Positions 20,431 through 35,786 of a stretch of 64,000 nucleotides of DNA are shown piece after piece. Position numbers and translations under genes: made by a program. Every line of letters begins with the position of its first letter. The stretch's first letter is position 1. The notes under the pieces were generated by a model that was given only the letters and a program-made list of their open reading frames with translations, did not search any database and was not told the origin of the DNA. This stretch comes from Escherichia coli (GTDB taxonomy: Bacteria > Pseudomonadota > Gammaproteobacteria > Enterobacterales > Enterobacteriaceae). The stretch lies in NCBI RefSeq assembly GCF_041248615.1, contig NZ_CP158426.1. One strand, given 5' to 3'.

Positions 20431-20520
20431 TTTATTAACGCTATTGTAAAACTGCCGTTTTTCCTCGTTTACAACGCGTGCGCTGGACATTACCATCCTC
20501 CTCTGCGATTTATCATCGCA

Positions 20521-20599
20521 ACCAAACGACTCGGGGTGCCCTTCTGCGTGAAGGCTGAGAAATACCCGTATCACCTGATCTGGATAATGCCAGCGTAGG
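20521..20599 (+). repeat. attL: 79-bp direct repeat identical to 33186..33264, a copy of the thiM TPP-riboswitch aptamer sequence (without the 3' strand of P1) joined to the thiM promoter side
   Basis: Exact 79/79 identity: ACCAAACGACTCGGGGTGCCCTTCTGCGTGAAGGCTGAGAAATACCCGTATCACCTGATCTGGATAATGCCAGCGTAGG. The sequence is the conserved thi-box/TPP aptamer. Confidence 0.85.
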
Positions 20600-20684
20600 T
20601 TGCCAACATTCTGATTAGTATTCATGTGGTTACATTTCTTTTTGTCCGTGTGTAATGCACCTAATGTACAAAAAGAGCGTAAAC

Positions 20685-21986
20685 ATGAGGTACAAAACTC
20701 TTCCATACACGTTTCAAAGAAACGGTAATTACTATCTACAGATTCGGCTTTCGAATGGTCGGATGTATAAAAAATCACTTCTCACTGACAGCTATCGTGA
20801 AGTCTCTGCTTTGATGATTGGTGTTGCTCCGTACATTCCTTTTGTTAAATCATTAGCCATCACAATCCCGATGTTTGATGCCTTTGTTTCAAACCTGATT
20901 ATGTCAAAACTTAGGGCTGTAAAAGTTCCGCTGCTATCACATCAGTCGGTAATTACCCCTGCTACATTCGAGGAACCAGCGACACAAGCCGAACCGCAAA
21001 ACATGCTAACTCTTTCTGATGCGTGGGCTATGTATAAAGCGGAAAAGGGTAAAACATGGACAAAGTCGATCTCAAGGGCGAATGAGCGTTACATGGAAGT
21101 CTTGATGGTTGTCTTGGGAGAGACAACTGACGTAGTTGCGATTTCTAAGCAGGACATCAAGCAGGTGATGGAAGTTGTTGAGAATTTGCCTAAGCGTGTT
21201 GTCCAACCGTATCGCTCAATGAACATCCAGCAACTGATTGAATGTGATGATGTATCACCGAATGAGTTAGTAGGAGTGGAAGCCATTCATAAGCATCTCA
21301 AAATCTACAAATCGCTTTTCAAGACTTTTCTAACAGAAAACAAAGATATTTTGATTAAATCCCCAACTGATGGGGTAGTAGCAGCACCATCTAAAGCAAG
21401 GTTTGGAGCATACAGTTCGGCGGAGATGAAGAAGTTTGTAGAGTGGGCACTTAAGCAGCCAGATGGCTGGCAGAAGTGGATAACATTGTTGTTGGCATAC
21501 ACAGGAGCCAGAAGGGGAGAAATTGCCAAACTGGAAAAATCACAAATAAAATATGATGAGGATAGCCATCGGTATTATTTCCTGATTGCAGAAGGAGGGC
21601 AGGGGAAAACCGAAAATGCTACCCGACAAGTAGTGATACACCCTAAGTTGATCGAATGGGGTTTCATGGAATACGTTGATCGCCAGTGGAAAGAACGGAT
21701 TTTTTCAGAAGTGGCTGGTACAAACATGACGAAGATCGGTAAAGAATTTGCTGATGTGCGTGACCAGCTTGACATTCCGTACTTAGACGATTTTGGACAG
21801 CGGAGGCTTTTGCATAGCATTCGTCATTCTGTTTGCTCTACTGCGATGGCTGGATGGGTAAAGAACATCTTGCATCTGCAACAAACAGTAGGCCATGAGA
21901 AAAGTGGAGGGATCACTAAACGCTACTTACATACGTTCCCACTATCATCAATTTGTTATGTTATTGATGGGATTAGTTGGGTCTGA
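20685..21986 (+). CDS. int: Tyrosine integrase of the island (433 aa from 'MRYKTLPYTF'; the provided ORF starts at 20655)
   Basis: C-terminal catalytic signature 'LHSIRHSV' (H-x-x-R) and '...KRYLHT' (Tyr); directly adjacent to the attL repeat. Confidence 0.8.
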   Translation: MRYKTLPYTFQRNGNYYLQIRLSNGRMYKKSLLTDSYREVSALMIGVAPYIPFVKSLAITIPMFDAFVSNLIMSKLRAVKVPLLSHQSVITPATFEEPATQAEPQNMLTLSDAWAMYKAEKGKTWTKSISRANERYMEVLMVVLGETTDVVAISKQDIKQVMEVVENLPKRVVQPYRSMNIQQLIECDDVSPNELVGVEAIHKHLKIYKSLFKTFLTENKDILIKSPTDGVVAAPSKARFGAYSSAEMKKFVEWALKQPDGWQKWITLLLAYTGARRGEIAKLEKSQIKYDEDSHRYYFLIAEGGQGKTENATRQVVIHPKLIEWGFMEYVDRQWKERIFSEVAGTNMTKIGKEFADVRDQLDIPYLDDFGQRRLLHSIRHSVCSTAMAGWVKNILHLQQTVGHEKSGGITKRYLHTFPLSSICYVIDGISWV

Positions 21987-22203: not shown

Positions 22204-23106
22204 GTGGATATGTTACTACCAATACGAGTTCATAAACGATTTCTAACTTTATTTAAGACTTTGCAAATTGACGATTGCCCACCGCAATCAACTTTAAATA
22301 TTCATGTACTTAATATCGAAAGCAATGAATTTATATACTGTAAATTAGTTGAAGAATTACGTGACATAATAATTACTTATGTACATTCGAATAGAAGGCT
22401 TGAGGAGTTTAAGGAAAGTTATCCTTCGTATAGCCCTAAACCTTTTTTCGAAGCAATACAAAAATTTCGCAATTATACGTCAAACGAAGGTGAGTTAGGT
22501 GAACTGCTTTTATACGCTTTTCTTGAAACAGGACTAAATGCTCCGAAATTACTTTCCAAAATGCAATTGAAAACAGATTCTAATGATTACATTAAGGGTT
22601 CTGATGGTGTACATCTGTTAGAATTAGATGATGGTTATCAATTAATATTTGGAGAATCAAAGCTCTATGCCGATCTTTTAGAAGGTGCTCGAGAAGCGTT
22701 TGATTCTATTTTAGATTTTAAAAGTAATGGAATGGCATTTGAAAGAGGGCTGATAGATACACACGTTATAAATGAAATGGTTTCAGAAGAAGGTTATGAG
22801 AAAATAAAATCAATTCTTCTTCCTTCTTCTGGCGATGATGGGCCAGATCTTGATTTATCCTTTGGTATATTTCTTGGTTTTGAATTGAAAATAGATAGCT
22901 CACAGTTATCATTGAAAAACAAAGAGTTTAGAGATTGGGTTAATGAGTCCGTGAAACAACATGCTACTCGCGTGGTCAGTACGATACGAAGGAAAATTAT
23001 TAATCATAAATTATATGGTCACGAATTCCACATATATATAGTTCCTTTTACCGATATTGATGTTACACGAAAAAAATTAATTCATGAAATGCTAACAATT
23101 AAGTGA
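22204..23106 (+). CDS. PD-(D/E)xK nuclease-like protein, candidate HamA (DUF1837-like) of a Hachiman-type defence system
   Basis: Motif 'HLLELDDGYQLIFGESKLY' (D...E-x-K). Its stop overlaps the start of the downstream helicase gene (ATGA-type coupling). AT-rich island cargo. Confidence 0.5.
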   Translation: MDMLLPIRVHKRFLTLFKTLQIDDCPPQSTLNIHVLNIESNEFIYCKLVEELRDIIITYVHSNRRLEEFKESYPSYSPKPFFEAIQKFRNYTSNEGELGELLLYAFLETGLNAPKLLSKMQLKTDSNDYIKGSDGVHLLELDDGYQLIFGESKLYADLLEGAREAFDSILDFKSNGMAFERGLIDTHVINEMVSEEGYEKIKSILLPSSGDDGPDLDLSFGIFLGFELKIDSSQLSLKNKEFRDWVNESVKQHATRVVSTIRRKIINHKLYGHEFHIYIVPFTDIDVTRKKLIHEMLTIK

Positions 23107-25691
23107 ACACTATGAATGAATTAAATTCAAGTAAAAACATTCATTTGGCAGCTCGTCTTGCAGATGATGCTTTTGAAAGTGCTTATTTTAAAGAAATCAA
23201 TAAGTTTATAAGTGGTTTATACAATTACAGTTTATTTAACTGCGATTCAGATGTTAGTCTCTCCGAGAGTGATAACAATAAAATAGCACACGCTTTGCGT
23301 TTTGCAGATATATTTTCACATTCTTCAAAAGAAAATCATAGATCATGTGCATTTGAAATTATAAGTAGAATAGCCTTATTAAAAAAACATGATCCTTATT
23401 TTAAATTTATAGGTACTGCTGTTATTAATCGGCTTGGGGTTTATGCAGCAGAAAAACTCATATCAAAAGGGGTAAAATTACCCTTAGATAGAGAAGTTGA
23501 TTCTATTATTAAAAAATCAGTTCAGAAAACAGATGAAGATGGAGTATATTTCACTGATAAACAACATGAGTTATACAAACTTTTAAAAAGTAGCAAAACA
23601 ATTAGTTTTGCTGGTCCCACTTCGATGGGAAAGTCATTTGTTATTAATGCATACATTAAGGAAATAACTCTTAAAAAAGAGCTTAAAAATATAGCTTTAA
23701 TTGTTCCTACACGGGCTTTAATAAGCCAAAATGCACTTAAGTTAAAAATTGATATTGCATTGTATAAGAATGAAAGCCCTTATAAAGTTGTTACGACATC
23801 CTACATTATTAATGGTGATGAAAGTAAAAATAAAGGCTATATTTTTATTCTCACCCCAGAAAGGCTGGTTAGTCTCATAAGCACTATTCCTGGACTAATG
23901 ATTGATTATGTTTTTGTAGATGAAGCTCAAAAGTTAACAACAAAAAATGATTCGAGGAGTCTTGTTACTTATTCAGCTATAGAGCAAACAATTAGTAAAA
24001 ATCCTGAGGCAAGATTATTCTTCTCTTCACCTAATTTATCTAATCCTGAAATATTTAATATTTTGTTTGATAGAAAAGACGCTTCGGTATATAGAAATAC
24101 AGAAGGTGCAACTACTCAGAATATGTATTTTATTGATCTTTTAAATAGCAGCTTTAGCTATGTTAATACCGAGAAAAGGACGCTTGAAAAAATAGATGAG
24201 ATCTCTAATACTTACACGAATACAAATGATGTTATCTATAAATTAAATAATGGTAAAAGTAAAATAATTTATTGTGGGGGGATAGAAAGCACGCTTGAGA
24301 GAACACGTAGCTTTATCAATTATCTCAAAATTAATAAGAAAAAAAGAAAGCATTTAAATTTAGAAATATCTTCTGAGATAAGAAACTTTGTTCATGATAA
24401 CTATGAACTTGCAGAAGCCATCAACTATGGTGTTGCTTTCCACTTTGGAAACTTGCCTCAATCGATTCGAGATTTAATTGAGCATCATTTCAAAATAGGA
24501 AATATTGACTATCTATTCTGTACATCAACCCTACTTGAGGGAGTCAATTTACCTGCAAGATCCGTATTTATTCTTACGCATAAAAAAGGCCCCAGTCCAT
24601 TAGAGTCGGTTGATTTTTGGAATCTGGCTGGGAGAGCTGGGCGATTATCTATGGAATTGTCAGGGGATATTTTTTGTATTAGGGATGATAATAAGCTTTG
24701 GAATAAAAAAGCTGTTGATAATATCCTTCTGTCTGACAAAAATAACATTTCATTAAAGCCAAGCTTCTATATTGAAGACGAAAAAAGATTGAACGATTTA
24801 CACCATATAATTACGACTGGTAAAACAGGGAATATTAAAAATGCTGAGTTCCTTAGAACTTTAGGAGATATGATAAGAATAGACACTCTGAGGGATTCTA
24901 AAGAACTTCCTCTTATTAGTTATTTCCAAAGCAGTGGAAAATCAGAAATTTTGTTAAGTGCAGAAAAAAGCACTGAAAATATTACCATGCCAATGAATAT
25001 CCTTTTGGCAAATAGTCATATTGCGATTGATTCGCAGTATCATGCTTTTAAAAAAATAAAAAGCCTTACAGTTAAGGAACTGAAATTATCATGGCAGCCT
25101 ACATACGAAGAAATTAAAGAAAAATTGAATTTGATATTCGATATTTACCAAGTTGAAAAGTTTGCAACAGGTAGAGAACGTCTTTATTTAAATTCAATTC
25201 CATATTATGCAGTATTACTGTTTCAATGGATTCGTGGAAATAGTCTACAGGAAATTATCTCGGGGGCAATTGCTTATAGAAAGAACAAAAGTATATATAT
25301 TAAAAATACACCTGTTCTTTTTGACAGCGAAAACCCAGCTCATTTAACTGCATTAGTTAATGAAACTATAAAAGACATTGAGTTGCGTGTAGGTTACCAG
25401 TTACAAAATTATTTTTCACATTACTGTCAGCTTCTGAATTATGTGTTACAAGGAAATCCAGGGGCAAACTGGTCTCAGTTCATTGAGTTTGGCTCTAATG
25501 AGCCAATAGTATGGCACCTACAAATGATGGGCTTTTCAAGGGATAGTGCAGTTTTTCTCAAGAAGAATTTTTCAAAACATCTTAAACTTGATAATGAAAT
25601 GAATAAACTCATCATAATGGATAAGGAACTGATCAAGCGTTCTTTCAAAAAAGATGGACTACATTACTTAGAAATCCAATCGTTATTATAA
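23103..25691 (+). CDS. SF2 helicase (862 aa), candidate HamB of a Hachiman-type defence system
   Basis: Walker A 'AGPTSMGKSF', motif II 'VFVDEAQKL', motif III-like 'FSSPN', 'TSTLLEGVNLPA' and motif VI 'LAGRAGR'. Translationally coupled to the upstream nuclease-like gene. Confidence 0.55.
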   Translation: MNTMNELNSSKNIHLAARLADDAFESAYFKEINKFISGLYNYSLFNCDSDVSLSESDNNKIAHALRFADIFSHSSKENHRSCAFEIISRIALLKKHDPYFKFIGTAVINRLGVYAAEKLISKGVKLPLDREVDSIIKKSVQKTDEDGVYFTDKQHELYKLLKSSKTISFAGPTSMGKSFVINAYIKEITLKKELKNIALIVPTRALISQNALKLKIDIALYKNESPYKVVTTSYIINGDESKNKGYIFILTPERLVSLISTIPGLMIDYVFVDEAQKLTTKNDSRSLVTYSAIEQTISKNPEARLFFSSPNLSNPEIFNILFDRKDASVYRNTEGATTQNMYFIDLLNSSFSYVNTEKRTLEKIDEISNTYTNTNDVIYKLNNGKSKIIYCGGIESTLERTRSFINYLKINKKKRKHLNLEISSEIRNFVHDNYELAEAINYGVAFHFGNLPQSIRDLIEHHFKIGNIDYLFCTSTLLEGVNLPARSVFILTHKKGPSPLESVDFWNLAGRAGRLSMELSGDIFCIRDDNKLWNKKAVDNILLSDKNNISLKPSFYIEDEKRLNDLHHIITTGKTGNIKNAEFLRTLGDMIRIDTLRDSKELPLISYFQSSGKSEILLSAEKSTENITMPMNILLANSHIAIDSQYHAFKKIKSLTVKELKLSWQPTYEEIKEKLNLIFDIYQVEKFATGRERLYLNSIPYYAVLLFQWIRGNSLQEIISGAIAYRKNKSIYIKNTPVLFDSENPAHLTALVNETIKDIELRVGYQLQNYFSHYCQLLNYVLQGNPGANWSQFIEFGSNEPIVWHLQMMGFSRDSAVFLKKNFSKHLKLDNEMNKLIIMDKELIKRSFKKDGLHYLEIQSLL

Positions 25692-25999: not shown

Positions 26000-26575
26000 T
26001 CAGCGTTTGATGCCGCTAATACTGGCAAGCATTTCTTTCTTCACACGAAAAACTGTAGCCCTGCCGCAATCACATAACTTTGCTATCTCGTCTGGTGTAT
26101 TCTTCCCGGCCTGTAACATATCGATAATCTTGTTATGTAGCTCTTTGTTCTTTTGCTTGCCCTTGTACTTCTTAGCCTCTTTAGCAAGAGCAATCCCCTC
26201 ATTGCGACGAGATGCGATCATACCCCGCTCAAATTCTGCAGCGGCTCCCATCATGGTTAGGATAAGGCGTGATTGTGGGGAATTATCAAAACTCATAGAG
26301 TTTGCAAGGAATTGAACAGTGATTCCACGAGCCACGAGGTTATCAATCATTTCCAGCAAATCGCGGGTATTACGTGCAAGGCGATCAATCGAGTGAGTAA
26401 CGAGCGTGTCACCTTCGCGGAGGTGTGAAAGCAGGTTCAACAATTCAGGTCTTTCGCTGGTGGACTTACCTGATTCTTTCTCTGCCACAATTTTGTCACA
26501 AACAGGTTCCAGCACTGCCAACTGACGCTCAAGATTTTGATCCTTTGTTGAGACTCTCGCGTAACCAAAAATCAT
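26000..26575 (-). CDS. Serine recombinase (resolvase/invertase family, 191 aa)
   Basis: N-terminus 'MIFGYARVSTKDQNLERQ' carries the catalytic Ser motif of resolvase/Hin-family enzymes; C-terminal helix-turn-helix region. Confidence 0.9.
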   Translation of the reverse strand: MIFGYARVSTKDQNLERQLAVLEPVCDKIVAEKESGKSTSERPELLNLLSHLREGDTLVTHSIDRLARNTRDLLEMIDNLVARGITVQFLANSMSFDNSPQSRLILTMMGAAAEFERGMIASRRNEGIALAKEAKKYKGKQKNKELHNKIIDMLQAGKNTPDEIAKLCDCGRATVFRVKKEMLASISGIKR

Positions 26576-26599: not shown

Positions 26600-26663
26600 A
26601 GTATCATTTGAATTTACTTAATGATACAGTATCATTTAAATGCATTCAACATCTAAATGATAC
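26600..26663. promoter_or_regulatory. res-like recombination site array upstream of the resolvase gene: GTATCAtttgaatttacttaaTGATAC and AGTATCATTTAAATG...CATCTAAATGATACT inverted repeats
   Basis: Repeated TGATAC/GTATCA half-sites seen directly; typical location 5' of the resolvase gene. Confidence 0.45.
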
Positions 26664-27125
26664 TAAACGAGACGAGAAAAGCGAGTATCGTTAGGGAGTA
26701 CCCAAAAGAGATTTTTGATCGTGCGTTTTTTAGTCAATGTAGGGTTAGTGAAAAGTTCAGTACCGAGATCTGAGTTCACGGCATTTTGTCGACGGGGTTG
26801 AACCTGATTAGGCGAACGAGATTTTAAATCAGGCGGAATAAAACAAGTTGTACTTTTATCTGAGTAAAAGATCCCTTTAACTTTTTAGTCAGAAATCGTG
26901 ATACTAGGGGTTTGGTTATTTTGTGTCCTTAAGGCCAGTACTTTTAGCGAGGACGAAAAAACGGCCTACATGAGAACGCTTACAGTAACTTAAGTATATT
27001 ATCCAAAAAGTCACTTAACTTAAATCAATTTGGATGCAAAATCGCCACACTTTGCAAGTGAACACATACCGGGCAACAAGCAAATAAAAAAGGCCACTTT
27101 CGCGACCTTGTACCAGTACAAACAC

Positions 27126-27485
27126 TCATTCAGAACGATCAAGTACCATATATGCTGGCTGACACATGCTGCCCCGCTCCTGTAGCCAGTAGTAATCAAG
27201 ATCGGCAACACGCACGTCCAATCCAGAATCTACACGGTTGATCTGTAACCGTAGCCCTACAGTATCCTTGTACGATAAACCAGATTTAACATTGTATTTG
27301 TACTTAACACCGTTTTCCTGTTCAAACTGTTTAAGGAAAGGCGTCATTTGTTTCTGAATTTCTTTCAAACAAATAACCTCATTATCAATAGCAAAGGGGG
27401 GTTCTGTTTTTCCATCAGGTACAGCAGCCTGTAAATGAAAGGAAGTACTCAACAATAACAGCATTGCAACAGAAGTCTTTTTCAT
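27126..27485 (-). CDS. Small secreted protein (119 aa, signal peptide 'MKKTSVAMLLLLSTSFHLQA'), unknown function
   Basis: Signal peptide followed by a two-Cys mature domain; 43 nt downstream of the membrane protein gene on the same strand. Confidence 0.6.
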   Translation of the reverse strand: MKKTSVAMLLLLSTSFHLQAAVPDGKTEPPFAIDNEVICLKEIQKQMTPFLKQFEQENGVKYKYNVKSGLSYKDTVGLRLQINRVDSGLDVRVADLDYYWLQERGSMCQPAYMVLDRSE

Positions 27486-28569: not shown

Positions 28570-29552
28570 CGCAATTATCCTTTAATAATTTTCCAAATCG
28601 ATGGTTCGTTCTATTTGTATTATCGACAATAATTCGTTTGCCTTTAGGTAGATCCCTTAAAAAGGAATCCCCCCAAAATTTATAGATTAGCAGTTGTACC
28701 ACTCTCACTGTTTTGTCACTCCCATTATCTTCTCTCAGGTCAAAAGTACGGACTTAAAGCCGTCCGTGTTCAGGTGCTCAAGAGTAGCACGCATATCAAT
28801 AAATGATCGATAAAAACGATCAATTAATGGCTTATTGATCGCTATAACCTATCAATGACTATTAATTCAATACAAATCAATAGGTAAAATCGATCAAGAG
28901 GATTCGTCATCCATGAAAGGGGTTATGTATCTGATTTCAATACAGGGAGTATTAGCGATACCATCACGCAAACGCTCTTAAAGCGTAGCTACGGCGTTTT
29001 GTAGGGTTTTTGGTCATTCATGTGTGTCAGTAATGAACATCGCATTCAGGGGCTTCCTGTGCGTTTTGTCCGAAACACCATCATGAAGGGGGACAGATCG
29101 GATCGGGGTCGCTTCGCTCTGGTCAGTACTGGATAGTTCTTTTCCAGTAACTGAAACCGCAGATACCCCACTAAGTACACAAAGGAATTATTTGTAGAAT
29201 AAGTAATGAAATAACAGTCAGTTATGTACTTACTGACAGAACTAAAAACGCGATTAGGTTCGCTCTGTCAGTGACCGAAGGGAACGCAACAGTAGAATCT
29301 AATCCAGCGAACAGTACACGCAAGCGGGTGCTGTTTAATTGTTTTATCTATGTAAACAATGGGATAGCTATCAAGTACTCACTGCGTGAGCACTCTCACT
29401 AACTACCCGAAACAGTTCGCTTGCTTCGCCGCTCCTACTTTCAGGTAGTTAATTCGCTTTCGCTCGTTGTGATGTCCGAAATTTATTACCTATAGTATTA
29501 TAAGGTATTATTTTCCGGACATTTATGTATTTTTATGATGGTGTTCTGGACA
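28570..29552. other. ~1-kb non-coding region with a GATC/ATCAAT-rich AT-rich cluster (28795-28900) and at least six TTCGCT iteron-like repeats in both orientations (29107-29471); candidate origin or regulatory region
   Basis: No ORF of 60 aa or more. Repeats 'ggtCGCTTCGCTCtggtcag', 'ggTTCGCTCtgtcagtg', 'cagTTCGCTtgcTTCGCcgc', 'aaTTCGCTTTCGCTCg' and 'cAGCGAAcagtac'. Four GATC sites lie within 100 bp. Confidence 0.4.
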
Positions 29553-31028
29553 TCATTTTTTGCTTTTTTGTACTTCCTTTTCGTATTTGTTCCACATAGC
29601 CTTTTGCTCTTCGGGACTGAGTGCTGTATTACCACTGGCAAGAAACACCTTGAACGCTTCTAACTCAAGCCCTGGGTTGCGGCTTTTCCAGCGGCGAAAA
29701 CGCTTAGCGTGATTATCATCAAGAGTGAAACGCTTTTGCTTATTCTTTGAACCTTGCGGCCTGCCTCTCGACCTCTGCTCATCATCAATACCGATATCTA
29801 TATACTCAATATTATCTGTAAGAGATCTGGCTTGCCATTCATCAAAAACATAAACAGTCTGTGTTTCAGTACTGTCAAAATCCCTTGAAATTCCTCGTAG
29901 TACGAACTGGTGTAAACTTTCGTACTCCCTCGCAACATGTATCGCCTCGCCGTCAATCTCAAAGAACAATTCGCACTGTTTAGCCTCTGTTTCAGAGGGA
30001 CGCATACAAGCGAGCCAGACGCACGTGAGCAAGTGTTGGTACTGGTTAAACCCTCTGGCATCCGGGCTTATCTCTGTGCCGTTTTTGAGGCTCTGAGAAT
30101 CGCTTTTGTTCTTCGTCCAGTAGAAATCCTGTCCCTCAAGTTTTTTATCAATAAATGAGTATATTTTTTGTACTTTATCAGGGTTATTAGTCTTCCATGT
30201 CTTCGATAGTTTTTGATTTTTTGAGAAGTAATAAACCTTTAATCTGTCTTTGAGAGCTGTTTTTCGTGTCAGTAATCCTCCAAGTTCAGTACTTTCAAAG
30301 AGTTCTTTATTGCCTTTATAGATCAATGAATTTTCGAAATTAGCTCCGAGAAAGGTGATTGATACGTCTTTGTACTTACTGAGATCTTTCCATGCGGTAA
30401 TATTAAGCTGTTCCTTTTTCGCATCGGTAAAGTACTCATTATTCATGATGAACATATCATTTTCGTTAATTGCTGGTAGCTGGTTCAAAATATTCTTCAG
30501 TACTTCCCCTTGTATTTCTGGTTTTCTTTCTGCCGCAATATACATATTTTTATCATCTAATGTCAGTACATTGTGTATTAATGAATTAAGAATTGTATTT
30601 TTTATATTAGTATCACCCTCATTAATATTCTGAAAAGAGTGAAAATTAGTAACGTCGTCAATATAAATATTACAGTCAGATAACAATTCAGGAGGAATTT
30701 TGAAAAACGTTTTATCTGTTATGAGTAATGTTTTATTACTTCCAGATGAAAGAAAGTTAATAACTGAATTAATAACACTTTCATCTTTTGGTACTGTATC
30801 TGTAATTATATACTCGCAATTATTGATTTGCTTTGCTGTCTGCTTAATAAGTTCTTGAGTGTTCTGTACTAAAATATATTTTTCAGTACTGTTATTGATT
30901 ATATTGCATATAGCAGTAGTTTTACCTGAACCACAAGGGGCGGAGACATACTTAAATTTATTATAAATAGGTGTGGGATTAATCATTTGTACACGCTCCA
31001 TATTGATTAATGTAGAAAGGTCAGCCAT
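29553..31028 (-). CDS. P-loop NTPase (491 aa) with C-terminal AT-hook-like motif; candidate Rep/helicase-like replication or mobilisation protein
   Basis: Walker A 'SAPCGSGKTTAI' near the N-terminus; Walker B-like 'IYIDDV'; C-terminal 'SRGRPQGSKNKQKR' (AT-hook GRP core). Confidence 0.6.
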   Translation of the reverse strand: MADLSTLINMERVQMINPTPIYNKFKYVSAPCGSGKTTAICNIINNSTEKYILVQNTQELIKQTAKQINNCEYIITDTVPKDESVINSVINFLSSGSNKTLLITDKTFFKIPPELLSDCNIYIDDVTNFHSFQNINEGDTNIKNTILNSLIHNVLTLDDKNMYIAAERKPEIQGEVLKNILNQLPAINENDMFIMNNEYFTDAKKEQLNITAWKDLSKYKDVSITFLGANFENSLIYKGNKELFESTELGGLLTRKTALKDRLKVYYFSKNQKLSKTWKTNNPDKVQKIYSFIDKKLEGQDFYWTKNKSDSQSLKNGTEISPDARGFNQYQHLLTCVWLACMRPSETEAKQCELFFEIDGEAIHVAREYESLHQFVLRGISRDFDSTETQTVYVFDEWQARSLTDNIEYIDIGIDDEQRSRGRPQGSKNKQKRFTLDDNHAKRFRRWKSRNPGLELEAFKVFLASGNTALSPEEQKAMWNKYEKEVQKSKK

Positions 31029-31370: not shown

Positions 31371-32276
31371 CTATATTTCCAGACACCTGTTATCACTTAA
31401 CCCATTACTGGCCTGCTGCCGCAGATATTCCCGTGGCGAGCGATAACCCAGTGCACTATGCGGATGCCATTCGTTATAATGCTCGAACGCCTCTGCAAGG
31501 TTCTTTGCTGCCGTTAACCCGTCTGGTTTAGGCATGATACTGATGTAGTCACGCTTTATCGTTTTCACGAAGCTCTCTGCTATGCCGTTACTCTCCGGAC
31601 TCCGCACCGCCGTGTTCTTCGGTTCAAGCCCCAATATCCGGGCAAACTGCCGTGTTTCATTAGCCCGGTAGCATGAACCATTATCCGTCAGCCACTCTAC
31701 TGGAGACGCCGGAAGCTCGTTGCCGAAGCGGCGTTCCACCGCTCCCAGCATGACGTCCTGTACTGTTTCACTGTCGAAGCCGCCCGTAGTGACTGCCCAG
31801 TGCAGTGCCTCACGGTCACAGCAGTCCAGCGCGAACGTGACTCGCAGTTTTTCTCCGTTATCACAGCGGAACTCGAACCCGTCAGAGCACCATCGTTGAT
31901 TGCTTTCTTTCACGGCCACTTTGCCAGTATGTGCCCGTTTCGATGGCGGTACAGCGGTTTTTCGCTCAAGCAACAGCGCATTCTGGCGCATGATCCGGTA
32001 AACACGTTTGGCATTGATCGCAGGCGTACCATCAAGTTCGGCCTGTCTGCGAAGCAGCGCCCATACCCGACGATAACCATACGTGGGCAGCTCTCCGATA
32101 ACATGGTGTATACGGAGAAGCACATCCGTATCATCTGAGTGACGGCTGCGGCGACCATCTTTCCAGTCATCGGTTCGTCTGAGAATTACGTGCAACTGCG
32201 CACGCGACACCCGGAGACAACGGCTGACTAAGCTTACTCCCCATCCCCGGGCAATAAGGGCGCGTGCGCTATCCAC
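31371..32276 (-). CDS. insD: IS2 transposase OrfB (InsD, 301 aa)
   Basis: Translation '[30 protein letters not shown]...' and DDE transposase region. Confidence 0.9.
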
Positions 32277-32599
32277 TTTTTTGCACGCCCGTATTCAACG
32301 GCTTCTTTAAGGAGTTCATTTTCCATCGTTTTTTTGCCGAGCAGGCGCTGGAGTTCTTTAATCTGCTTCATGGCAGCAGCAAGTTCAGAGGCAGGAACGA
32401 CCTGCTCTCCTGCGGCCACAGCAGTAAGACTTCCCTCCTGGTATTGCTTGCGCCAGAGAAATAACTGGCTGGCTGCCACACCGTGTTGCCGGGCAACAAG
32501 GGAGACCTTCATTCCCGGTTCAAAACTCTGCTGAACAATAGCGATCTTTTCCTGTGTAGTACGCCGTCTGCGTTTCTCCGGTCCTAAGACATCAATCAT
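32234..32599 (-). CDS. insC: IS2 OrfA (InsC, 121 aa from '[18 protein letters not shown]')
   Basis: Helix-turn-helix protein overlapping insD in the -1 frame, as in IS3-family elements. Confidence 0.9.
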
Positions 32600-33073
32600 C
32601 TGCTCTCCAATGACTAGTCTAAAAACTAGTATTAAGACTATCACTTATTTAAGTGATATTGGTTGTCTGGAGATTCATGGGGCCAGTCTACATATAATCA
32701 TGTTCATCTTCTAATTCTTTAAATTTTAATAGAGAAATCTCTTCATAATATTCTTTCATTTTCATATAAATCACCTTTTATTTTTTTGTTGTTAACACAG
32801 GTTTTTTTCTGCACTACACATTATAGCACATAGAATTAATTCGTTTCATTTTCTGTCAATGAAATAGAGTAAAGATAAATGCTTTTATAAAGCACTTATC
32901 ACATCCGTTGCCTTGCTATATATAAAAAGTTCTCCAAACTATACTGGTGTATATTTTCCCCATCAGATACAGTTGTTTTTAAACATTACAATGTTGGATT
33001 CTTGGTTCCAAATAAATCGAGCAACTATTAGTGTTTCAAAATGAAGTTGGGAGCTATTCCTTAATTCGTATGA

Positions 33074-33185: not shown

Positions 33186-33317
33186 ACCAAACGACTCGGG
33201 GTGCCCTTCTGCGTGAAGGCTGAGAAATACCCGTATCACCTGATCTGGATAATGCCAGCGTAGGGAAGTCACGGACCACCAGGTCATTGCTTCTTCACGT
33301 TATGGCAGGAGCAAACT
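33186..33317 (+). ncRNA. thiM TPP riboswitch (aptamer plus expression platform) preceding thiM; its first 79 nt (33186-33264) form the attR direct repeat
   Basis: Conserved thi-box sequence CUGAGA...ACCUGAUCUGGAUAAUGCCAGCG; its 3' continuation 'GAAGTCACGGACCACCAGGTCATTGCTTCTTCACGTTATGGCAGGAGCAAACTATG' carries the anti-Shine-Dalgarno/Shine-Dalgarno platform. Confidence 0.85.
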
Positions 33318-34106
33318 ATGCAAGTCGACCTGCTGAGTTCCGCGCAATCTGCGCACGCGTTACACCTTTTTCACCAACATTCCCCTCTTGTGCACTGCAT
33401 GACCAACGATGTGGTGCAAACCTTTACTGCCAATACCTTGCTGGCGCTCGGTGCATCGCCAGCGATGGTTATCGAAACCGAAGAGGCCAGTCAGTTTGCG
33501 GCTATCGCCAGTGCGTTGCTGATTAACGTTGGCACGCTGACGCAGCCACGCGCACAGGCGATGCGTGCCGCCGTTGAACAGGCAAAACGCTCTCAAACAC
33601 CCTGGATGCTTGATCCAGTAGCGGTGGGTGCACTCGATTATCGCCGCCGTTTTTGTCTGGAACTTCTGTCTCATAAGCCAACCGCCATACGTGGTAATGC
33701 TTCGGAAATCATGGCATTAGCTGGCGTTGCTAATGGTGGACGGGGAGTGGATACCACTGACGCCGCAGCTAACGCGATACCCGCTGCACAAACACTGGCA
33801 CGGGAAACTGGCGCAATCGTCGTGGTCACTGGCGAGATGGATTATGTTACCGATGGACATCGTATCATTGGTATTCACGGTGGCGATCCGTTAATGACCA
33901 AAGTGGTAGGAACTGGCTGTGCATTATCGGCGGTTGTCGCTGCCTGTTGTGCGTTACCAGGCGATACGCTGGAAAATGTCGCATCTGCCTGTCACTGGAT
34001 GAAACAAGCCGGAGAACGCGCAGTCGCCAGTAGCGAGGGGCCAGGCAGTTTTGTTCCACATTTCCTTGATGCGCTCTGGCAATTGACGCCGGAGGTGCAG
34101 GCATGA
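33318..34106 (+). CDS. thiM: Hydroxyethylthiazole kinase ThiM (262 aa)
   Basis: Length, position after the TPP riboswitch, 4-nt overlap with thiD. Confidence 0.95.
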
Positions 34107-34903
34107 AACGAATTAACGCTCTGACGATTGCCGGTACTGATCCGAGTGGTGGTGCGGGGATTCAGGCCGATCTTAAAACCTTCTCGGCACTTGGCGCTTA
34201 TGGTTGCTCAGTGATTACTGCACTGGTGGCGCAAAATACCCGTGGCGTACAGTCGGTGTATCGCATTGAGCCTGATTTTGTCGCCGCCCAGCTCGATTCG
34301 GTGTTCAGCGATGTGCGAATCGATACCACTAAAATCGGTATGTTGGCGGAAACCGATATTGTTGAAGCGGTGGCAGAACGGTTGCAACGTTATCAGATCC
34401 AAAACGTGGTACTCGACACCGTTATGCTGGCAAAAAGCGGCGACCCGCTGCTTTCACCTTCGGCGGTTGCTACGCTGCGCAGTCGATTATTGCCACAGGT
34501 TTCATTAATAACGCCAAACTTGCCCGAAGCTGCTGCCTTGCTCGACGCGCCACACGCGCGCACCGAACAGGAAATGCTGGAACAAGGGCGATCGCTGTTG
34601 GCGATGGGCTGTGGCGCAGTGCTAATGAAAGGTGGTCATCTGGATGATGAGCAAAGCCCGGACTGGCTGTTTACTCGCGAGGGAGAACAACGGTTTACCG
34701 CACCGCGCATTATGACCAAAAACACCCACGGCACTGGTTGTACGCTCTCTGCGGCGTTGGCTGCACTACGCCCGCGCCATACAAACTGGGCTGACACCGT
34801 ACAGGAGGCAAAAAGCTGGCTTTCATCGGCGTTAGCCCAGGCCGACACGCTGGAAGTTGGTCACGGTATTGGTCCGGTTCACCACTTCCACGCCTGGTGG
34901 TGA
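34103..34903 (+). CDS. thiD: Hydroxymethylpyrimidine/phosphomethylpyrimidine kinase ThiD (266 aa)
   Basis: Length, translational coupling with thiM, PfkB-like fold motif 'GTGCTLSAA'. Confidence 0.95.
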
Positions 34904-34958
34904 GCACCGTACTATAGCTGCTTTGGTTATTGTCAGCCTTTGGCACTGACATTCAGGG

Positions 34959-35786
34959 ATGAAACCAATGCAGCTAAGAATCACCAGTCGAAAAAAACTC
35001 ACCGCTTTATTATGCGCTCTTGGGCTAATTTCCATCGTTGCGATTCATCCGCGTCAGACGGTGAATTTTTTCTATTCGACAGCAATTCAGATTAAAGACT
35101 ACATCCACTTCTACGGTTATCGCCCGGTTAAATCTTTCGCTATTCGCATTCCTGCCAGTTACACCATTCACGGAATAGATGTTTCGCGCTGGCAGGAGCG
35201 AATCGACTGGCAGCGGGTGGCAAAAATGCGCGATAACGGTATTCGCTTGCAATTTGCCTTTATCAAGGCGACGGAAGGCGAAAAGCTGGTGGACCCCTAT
35301 TTTTCGCGTAACTGGCAACTAAGCCGCGAAAATGGCCTGCTGCGCGGGGCGTATCATTATTTTTCCCCGTCGGTATCCGCTTCAGTTCAGGCGAGATTAT
35401 TTCTGCAAACGGTGGATTTCTCACAAGGCGATTTCCCTGCCGTGCTGGACGTAGAAGAACGGGGAAAATTATCGGCAAAAGAATTACGCAAGCGGGTAAG
35501 TCAGTGGCTAAAAATGGTCGAAAAAAGTACGGGGAAAAAGCCGATTATTTACTCAGGAGCCGTTTTTTATCACACGAATCTGGCGGGCTATTTCAATGAA
35601 TATCCGTGGTGGGTGGCTCATTACTATCAACGTCGTCCGGACAATGACGGCATGGCCTGGCGCTTCTGGCAGCATTCCGACCGTGGACAGGTAGATGGCA
35701 TTAATGGTCCGGTGGATTTTAATGTGTTTAATGGCACGGTGGAGGAGTTGCAGGTATTCGTTGATGGGATTAAAGAAACGCCTTAA
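34959..35786 (+). CDS. yegX: GH25-family lysozyme-like glycoside hydrolase YegX (275 aa)
   Basis: Synteny (thiD-yegX-yegW); signal/transmembrane N-terminus. Confidence 0.7.
   Translation: MKPMQLRITSRKKLTALLCALGLISIVAIHPRQTVNFFYSTAIQIKDYIHFYGYRPVKSFAIRIPASYTIHGIDVSRWQERIDWQRVAKMRDNGIRLQFAFIKATEGEKLVDPYFSRNWQLSRENGLLRGAYHYFSPSVSASVQARLFLQTVDFSQGDFPAVLDVEERGKLSAKELRKRVSQWLKMVEKSTGKKPIIYSGAVFYHTNLAGYFNEYPWWVAHYYQRRPDNDGMAWRFWQHSDRGQVDGINGPVDFNVFNGTVEELQVFVDGIKETP

Follow-up and report, generated by a model that had tools for sequence, protein, structure and literature searches.

A 64,000-nucleotide stretch of the Escherichia coli chromosome (contig NZ_CP158426.1; the window) carries an integrase-bearing defence island in which the gene of a superfamily 2 (SF2) helicase-like ATPase is followed directly, on its 3' side, by a palindrome-rich non-coding element of 482 nucleotides (nt), here termed block A. 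The helicase gene and block A behave as one conserved unit and, judged from their conservation and arrangement, are read as a replication initiator and its cognate origin in integrative islands with varied defence systems, with a probability of roughly 0.55. An earlier sequence-only reading of this DNA had proposed a rep-ori module; the pairing of a helicase gene with the ~480 nt 3' of it stands, whereas the type of Rep protein and the AT-rich block that were part of the proposal do not.

The helicase

The longest open reading frame (ORF) of the helicase gene encodes 491 amino acids (aa) and includes, as had been read from the letters, a Walker A motif (SAPCGSGKTTAI, residues 29-40) and an AT-hook (RGRP, 422-425) within the stretch RSRGRPQGSKNKQKR (420-434). 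RefSeq and most homologues begin 14 codons later, and the start codon is probably at 30986, giving a protein of 477 aa (29553-30986). The Walker B motif is DD at 124-125, motif VI is HQFxLRGxSR and a three-helix domain (438-490) forms the C-terminus. The AlphaFold model (35 homologues; mean confidence, pLDDT, 85.7) has two RecA-like domains, a disordered linker that carries the AT-hook and three C-terminal helices. The linker (418-434) is the sole internal disordered stretch of the model, and the GRP core of the AT-hook is invariant in 14 homologues.

The helicase is an SF2 protein with an XPD/DinG-like fold, not an SF3/SF4/Rep or Zot-like protein, the folds that the sequence-only reading had proposed to look for. 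In helicases of the XPD/DinG type the first RecA domain of the SF2 core is interrupted by a four-cysteine Fe-S domain and an Arch domain. Pfam matches (ResIII and DEAD) cover the N-terminus only, at the first helicase motif (ResIII E 4e-5), and nearly the full length (residues 21-449) matches phrog_2467 of PHROGs, a family of unassigned function. The best matches in a library of viral structures are uncharacterised phage helicases (template modelling score, TM, 0.55-0.68), and a PDB sequence search with the helicase gave no match. Origin-binding proteins of the herpesvirus UL9 type are weak structural matches (ranks 33-50, TM about 0.3, the generic SF2 level), and a UL9-like origin-binding protein was rejected as an identity since the similarity is limited to the generic SF2 core.

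Public names for the protein (WP_001590329) and its relatives alternate among 'DEAD/DEAH box helicase family protein', 'type III restriction endonuclease subunit R' and 'hypothetical protein'. The second of these, a RefSeq label, is unjustified because the protein has no nuclease domain and there is no Mod gene nearby. Res subunits of type III restriction enzymes are large proteins in which a C-terminal endonuclease domain accompanies the helicase, and their genes adjoin that of a Mod methyltransferase. Here the helicase core is followed by the AT-hook and three helices, not by an endonuclease domain, and the whole protein has only 477-491 aa.

Block A

The gap between the membrane-protein gene and the helicase gene (28570-29552, 983 nt) is free of ORFs longer than 59 aa, in agreement with the ~1 kb without ORFs noted earlier, and single-base indels among relatives argue against coding. 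Alignment of the DNA downstream of the helicase gene from many loci divides this "1-kb region" into two separable units: block A, which adjoins the helicase gene, and the AT-rich block B, treated below. Downstream of the helicase gene every relative examined has 0.45-1.0 kb of non-coding DNA, the first ~480 nt of which are present in each. The linkage holds across tyrosine or large serine integrases, across integration sites and across cargoes (Hachiman, a retron, a methyltransferase and a Cap4-nuclease system).

Block A is 475-484 nt long in most loci (423-460 in L139, L141/L142 and L015) and is more strongly constrained than the helicase gene. Nucleotide identity is 79-95% in block A where it is 65-94% in the gene; in L013 the values are 85% and 65% (protein about 55%), and in L014 they are 79% and 66%. 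A profile of block A (nhmmer) also matches its ends in L138, L146 (E 4e-5) and L015 (E 2e-3).

The architecture of block A is that of dense palindromes between two inverted arms (Table 1). The distal arm and the adjoining CCCGATCC motif are the part best kept in distant elements, and the proximal arm is less exact in both the window and L015. At the borders of block A lie four TGTCCRAA motifs (TGTCCGAAA-like 8-9-mers, two direct and two inverted), and internal stretches are 70-75% AT. In L015 the distal arm and the two halves of the hairpin, three of the four copies, read TGTCACAA(A/T), and the variant of TGTCCGAAA is TGTCACAAA. The four recurrences of the 8-9-mer look more like a protein-binding site.

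The folding potential of block A far exceeds that of shuffled sequence, with minimum free energy (MFE) z-scores of -7.9 and -6.4 for RNA of the two strands and -6.0 for DNA. An RNAalifold consensus has seven pairs changed on both sides, compared to 2.7 +/- 1.3 in shuffles. In L111 a double compensatory change falls in the arms alone; the arms of L111 and L015 differ in sequence yet still pair, and L015 retains the GCGAAG-containing loop on a stem of completely different sequence.

The sequence-only reading had counted six TTCGCT cores in both orientations. The count holds and both orientations occur, but five of the six share one orientation (TTCGCT on the + strand at 29113, 29259, 29416, 29453 and 29459; AGCGAA at 29306). 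Six cores compare with 0.33 expected (P about 1e-6), and their spacing is irregular (6, 37, 110, 47 and 146 nt). Four of the cores are contained in or overlap the mini-hairpin motifs GCGAAAGC and GCGAAGC, whose alignment columns are invariant or nearly so and whose three copies are all on the helicase-sense strand.

Two further loci have repeated sequence near the helicase gene. In Raoultella ornithinolytica (L011 9780-9873), and likewise in L133, part of block A is found a second time (profile positions 99-207, E 1e-11), ~130-220 bp upstream of where the helicase begins; this copy is reminiscent of a second cis replication region. In Providencia (L138 9667-10141) direct repeats of 199 bp x 2.0 and 96 bp x 1.9 lie downstream of the helicase gene, in the position of the central part of block A.

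Block B

Block B was reported in the sequence-only reading as an AT-rich block with four GATC and five ATCAAT motifs, and these counts are confirmed: within 28795-28900 GATC occurs at 28805, 28818, 28837 and 28892 (0.39 expected) and ATCAAT/ATTGAT occurs five times (0.12 expected). Each repeat count of the gap exceeds the rate for the window as a whole 10- to 40-fold and is rarely attained by stretches of equal size elsewhere in the 64 kb (2/6364 for TTCGCT, 11/6390 for GATC and 2/6390 for ATCAAT).

The association of block B is with the membrane-protein operon. Block B is probably the operator/promoter region of this downstream operon and is not helicase-linked, because it stays just upstream of the membrane-protein gene (L015, L140 and L138) even when that gene lies 4 kb away from the helicase or is inverted with respect to it (as in L140), and because a CI(S24)/HTH_35 switch replaces it in L141. 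Its proposed role as an unwinding element is, thus, not upheld, and the alternative that the 1-kb region is the promoter or 5' untranslated region of the membrane-protein gene applies to block B but not to block A. At the position of block B, L139, L013 and L014 have a 204-206-aa minus-strand ORF where L141 has the CI-like repressor; in L013 and L014 the end of this converging ORF (204/206 aa) falls within ~110 nt of block A, on the side of the hairpin at 29047-29059. A compensatory variant in the terminator-like hairpin at 28742-28767 is seen in L005.

The L140 locus is a 5932-bp Morganella contig that contains a resolvase gene. Each of its ends carries a copy of a 30-nt inverted repeat and sequence resembling block B, and its whole helicase-to-membrane-protein segment may be invertible.

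Distribution and distant relatives

The helicase family occurs widely in Enterobacterales, with 230 proteins at E <= 1e-5 and 382 cluster representatives at 50% identity (E <= 1e-3). Block A is found in 84 of 5426 complete E. coli genomes and is always chromosomal. A metagenome scan used a 16-mer, too short a probe, and gave mostly chance loci and five real ones (L093, L096, L104, L111 and L133).

Islands integrated at ffs in about 30 E. coli genomes keep the part with the membrane protein, the 118-aa protein, cargo and resolvase, and are without the helicase. Of block A they keep just the last ~73-100 nt, the distal arm (e.g., L148 7001-7073, strain Res13-Lact-ER07-18). The helicase and most of block A are lost together; therefore, the module is dispensable for chromosomal residence, as a mobility function would be. 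The deletion end-point in these islands recurs near CCCGATCC.

The association of helicase and structured DNA extends to homologues that are only about 25-28% identical (P0150, P0274 and P0275), yet adjoin hairpin-rich non-coding DNA. Folding z-scores are -9.2 downstream of P0275 (L146), -5.0 upstream of P0150 (L143) and -4.5 upstream of P0274 (L145). This DNA has GCGAAGC motifs, inverted arms of the TGTCCAAA type (L145) and a CCCGATCC...CATNATGGTG end motif. Of the three loci, L143 is again a defence island and has CI/HTH_35 together with two resolvases. A LexA-like CI(S24)/HTH_35 switch is present in related islands, a regulatory setting that one would expect of an inducible element.

The other two loci are prophages. 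L145 (4900-19359) is T7-like and integrated; it has a large serine recombinase, RNA polymerase, endonuclease I, lysozyme and gp6.5/6.7/7/8-like genes, and no gp4/gp5 homologue is found at the canonical place between the lysozyme and head-tail connector genes. The helicase homologue P0274 of this prophage lies beside the integrase, next to the structured non-coding region. The L146 helicase gene has the serine integrase on one side and the terminase/portal genes on the other, and no other recognisable replication gene is found in this locus. P0178, a further distant homologue, has a Prim-Pol domain fused to its N-terminus.

Proposed mechanism and alternative functions

If the helicase is an initiator, the integrase would excise the island as a circle and the helicase would bind the TGTCCRAA...CACC motifs by its AT-hook and C-terminal helical domain, with the four border copies of block A (two in each orientation) as proposed binding sites. 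ATP-driven unwinding would allow the many palindromes to extrude as hairpins. The GCGAAAGC and GCGAAGC mini-hairpins on one strand, of a type resistant to single-stranded DNA-binding protein, could then act as priming signals for host primase, an arrangement that would suit an element encoding no primase or polymerase. The host replisome would copy the circle, and the small serine recombinase would resolve multimers. A wider claim is more doubtful and is put forward tentatively: the XPD-like SF2 AT-hook helicase and a ~480-bp hairpin-extruding origin with G4-type priming signals might form a previously unrecognised initiator-origin pair that the 'integrase-only' defence islands of Enterobacterales have in common as their mobility core and that also serves some temperate phages, including the T7-like prophage that is without its own primase-helicase and polymerase.

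Several results weigh against an initiator and origin. SF2 helicases are unusual as bacterial initiators, and membership in the CyRepA1 family was rejected, the NCBIfam match scoring 20 bits against a cut-off of 200. The helicase has two weak tblastn matches only in 72,556 plasmids which, with the strictly chromosomal occurrence of block A, disfavours the plasmid-like lifestyle suggested earlier; in phages the family is represented by distant members in six records, four of them jumbo phages. No circular or end-overlapping contig was found in six element-sized assemblies, and the 6.5-kb contigs give no sign of circularity. Tandem Repeats Finder (TRF) detected no tandem arrays in the window, and no DnaA boxes, IHF consensus sites or 13-mers were found. 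Iteron-type origins have tandem, regular direct repeats of 17-22 bp, usually with DnaA boxes. The repeats of block A, irregularly spaced, are not classical iterons as had been supposed, and an iteron-type plasmid origin was rejected on these grounds together with the absence of the helicase and its DNA from plasmids. The support from covariation is modest because the close-family sequences average 85% identity.

Among the alternatives, block A could be the cis site of another DNA transaction (e.g., a helper-phage packaging signal or a transfer origin, oriT, recognised by a conjugative relaxase) with the helicase as motor, in which case the island would be a hitch-hiker that need not replicate itself. 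No transfer or packaging genes of the island's own were found, so that it would need a helper; oriT and packaging (pac) regions are likewise rich in inverted repeats, and relatives have phage-like CI/Cro switches. Such a function is nonetheless unlikely, as the same helicase and site occur inside prophages with their own terminase (L146) and neither a relaxase nor a terminase is associated with block A. A blastn comparison of the 983-nt gap with 50,697 phage and 72,556 plasmid records, moreover, found no similarity, on which ground a mimic of oriT or pac was rejected, and a scan of IMG/VR with an invariant 20-mer of block A gave zero matches.

A ~480-nt structured non-coding RNA, transcribed with or after the helicase mRNA and regulating the element or acting with the helicase, would account for the very strong folding z-scores, some compensatory pairs, the GNRA-like GCGAAAGC hairpins and a conservation above that of the neighbouring gene. 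The structure is, however, indifferent to strand: the RNAalifold consensus energy is -75.3 in sense and -78.7 in antisense, G-U and A-C cells are balanced in the helices predicted on both strands (14 against 10) and the sense strand has the better MFE in 6/17 sequences. Rfam 15 gives nothing at gathering score in the whole window and chance-level matches only, at E up to 5, in the gap. No conserved promoter or terminator brackets block A, and the 8-9-mer present four times resembles a protein-binding site. With no strand asymmetry and a negative Rfam search, the structure potential is therefore attributed to DNA palindromes, and a strand-specific RNA is improbable.

It is less probable again that the helicase is a defence or anti-defence factor of the island backbone, for which block A might serve as decoy or sensor. 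The islands carry defence systems, SF2 helicases are common in such systems (HamB is 4 kb away) and the RefSeq label is that of a type III restriction subunit. By contrast, the helicase gives no match to any PADLOC model, so that the defence-family assignment foreseen as an alternative was not obtained, and it has neither a nuclease domain nor an adjacent Mod gene. The gene is constant while cargo varies, adjoins the integrase in islands and prophages alike and is fused to Prim-Pol in a distant homologue. A replication initiator fits better than defence cargo because the cargo varies, the module is constant and the module would adjoin the integrase in the circular form.

Very improbable is an invertible switch or res site for the small serine recombinase, a backbone gene of Hin/resolvase type: inverted repeats of 21 bp enclose block A (~480 bp, of which 444 bp lie between the arms) and the Morganella contig ends in 30-nt inverted repeats, but the orientation of block A is the same, and the sequence collinear and in one piece, in 50 of 50 E. 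coli genomes that hold most of the module and in about 20 loci of other genera. Sites of the hix/gix kind are palindromic within themselves, which the arms are not, and the arms were rejected as resolvase sites in that a different motif (GTATCATT/AATGATAC) is repeated upstream of the recombinase gene. The TGTCCGAAA motif presumably bears a likeness to resolvase half-sites.

The island and its backbone genes

The low-GC island sits between two copies of the thiM thiamine pyrophosphate (TPP) riboswitch that have an 80-bp exact direct repeat in common. This repeat forms the core of the attachment (att) sites (~20520-20600 and ~33190-33270) and spans nearly the whole riboswitch aptamer. The left att copy is immediately upstream of the integrase gene, which may lie behind a functional riboswitch copy. 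The order of the island is integrase, HamA/HamB, serine recombinase, 119-aa protein, membrane protein, 983-nt gap, helicase-like gene, small ORF and IS2 (Table 1). The island is ~11 kb, and 12.7 kb in the window owing to the insertion of IS2 (31371-32644) between attR and the small ORF upstream of the helicase gene. Strain KE55 (L001) has the same island without IS2. Packaging genes, capsid-redirection genes (terS, rpp and cpm) and an AlpA/Stl-type regulator were not found between the att sites.

Table 1. Features of the island and its surroundings (window coordinates).
Feature	Position	Strand	Remarks
Tyrosine integrase	20655-21986		First gene of the island order
Hachiman HamA/HamB	22204-25691		Strong PADLOC matches
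Small serine recombinase (resolvase/invertase type)	26000-26575	-	Pfam Resolvase E 2.5e-36
119-aa secreted protein	27126-27485	-	Backbone gene; 72% identity to Pectobacterium L141 homologue
Membrane protein, 346 aa	27529-28569	-	Backbone gene; no family match
Terminator-like hairpin ACGGAC-GGCTTTAA-GTCCGT, then ACTTTT	28742-28767	-	Below terminator-scan threshold
Block B, AT-rich	28793-28900		Four GATC, repeated TTGATCG/ATCAAT half-sites; motif counts, direct and inverted repeats
GC hairpin, then T-rich run	29047-29059	+	Reads from block B towards block A
Block A, palindrome-rich, non-coding, 482 nt	29067-29552		Directly 3' of the helicase gene; candidate origin/cognate cis site
Helicase-distal inverted arm	29067-29087		TTCATGATGGTGTTTCGGACA on minus strand; repeat finding
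Three mini-hairpin motifs	29111-29463	- (helicase-sense)	GCGAAAGC at 29456-29463; GCGAAGC at 29423-29429 and 29111-29117
Hairpin-capable palindrome, 51 nt	29472-29522		Two further TGTCCGRAA-type motifs, inverted; repeat finding
Helicase-proximal inverted arm, 21 nt	29532-29552		TGTCCAGAACACCATCATAAA on minus strand; abuts stop codon; 86% complementary to 29067-29087
SF2 helicase-like ATPase gene	29553-31028	-	Longest ORF 491 aa
thiM, thiD, yegX	33318-35786		E. coli chromosome context of the window

Nearly all related islands have the small serine recombinase at their far end, and it may serve to resolve multimers. Upstream of its gene, on the minus strand, GTATCAT/ATGATAC repeats occur in both orientations (26600-26680); these are a candidate res or operator site for the recombinase and are unlike the arm motif of block A. 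The membrane protein and the 119-aa protein have no PADLOC match. The membrane protein is 74% identical to its L005 homologue over residues 3-148, the conserved N-terminal transmembrane part; the C-termini of the protein and its homologues (L002, L005 and L141) are unrelated, with overall lengths of 195-346 aa, which suggests a cassette-like exchange.

Implications

Many defence systems of E. coli are carried on small integrase islands without a recognisable means of moving, an open problem (PMC10121019). Hochhauser et al. (2023) describe such 'integrase-only' defence islands of E. coli, with the mode of mobilisation left open and Hachiman among the systems illustrated (PMC10121019). The islands considered here are alike in that they bear an integrase and carry defence systems; the 2023 study, by contrast, names no helicase, resolvase or cis element, and the backbone defined here is not described there (PMC10121019). 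A literature search found no paper with the RefSeq accessions or with a description of the helicase/block A backbone.

The conserved backbone defined here for one island family across Enterobacterales comprises the helicase, the palindromic cis element of 482 nt, either a CI/Cro-type switch or block B, two envelope proteins and a resolvase. Should the helicase prove to be an initiator with block A as its origin, the islands would be inducible replicons, likely satellites or hitch-hikers, and the spread of Hachiman, retrons and other systems would become experimentally tractable. The module may, in this way, help to explain the spread of 'integrase-only' islands, and the few types of replication initiator in bacteria would be joined by an SF2 helicase. 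In practical terms, the analysis also corrects the widespread label "type III restriction endonuclease subunit R".

Comparison with known systems

With block A as a putative origin, the module would have the general layout of the Staphylococcus aureus pathogenicity islands (SaPI) and other phage-inducible chromosomal islands (PICI), in which a helicase gene is directly followed by a cis-acting origin on a small, inducible, integrase-bearing island and repeated motifs flank AT-richer stretches. The Rep proteins of PICI are described as primase/helicase initiators, of the primase/SF3-helicase (Pri-Rep) type. By contrast, the helicase of the present island is SF2 and XPD-like, its site consists of dense palindromes rather than two sets of iterons, and packaging, capsid-remodelling and AlpA/Stl genes were not found in it. 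Thus, the suggested membership in the PICI/SaPI group fails on the type of Rep and on the packaging genes.

The alpha protein of the phage satellite P4, with ori and crr, is similar in being a helicase with a C-terminal origin-binding part, putative in the island helicase, that recognises short octamer-like motifs in both orientations. The second partial block A of L011 and the long direct repeats of L138 are reminiscent of crr. P4 alpha is a primase fused to an SF3 helicase. The island helicase has no sequence or fold relationship to alpha, and the island is without a cos site or P4-like genes.

The herpesvirus UL9/oriS system pairs an SF2 helicase that has a C-terminal DNA-binding part with a palindromic origin that includes GTTCGC-containing boxes, a pairing that the island helicase and block A may resemble. 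Beyond the SF2 core there is no further homology, and the likeness is one of analogy, not membership. CyRepA1 (Slr7037) of the Synechocystis plasmid pSYSA is a Rep protein with primase and helicase domains that is required experimentally (PMC9978351). The island helicase resembles it by the weak NCBIfam match to the N-terminal helicase motif region, well short of the cut-off, and by the fusion of a distant homologue to Prim-Pol; it differs from CyRepA1 in that the latter has 958 aa and a primase domain and is plasmid-borne.

With regard to priming, GCGAAAGC is the motif at the primase start site of the complementary-strand origin of phage G4, and a related motif is found in ssiA of RSF1010 (PMC13037366). 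The likeness to G4 and to the RSF1010/IncQ oriV with ssiA/ssiB would lie in hairpin single-strand initiation signals with GNA-type mini-hairpins, which in the plasmid are exposed once its helicase has opened the origin. Signals of this type direct primase on single-stranded DNA coated with single-stranded DNA-binding protein. RSF1010, however, has RepC iterons, the SF4 helicase RepA and its own primase, whereas the island encodes no primase; in the island the mini-hairpins are all on one strand, and their part in priming is purely putative. By analogy, the island module, while a member of none of these families, may work like the rep-ori of SaPI/PICI or P4 and may borrow the priming logic of G4 and RSF1010.

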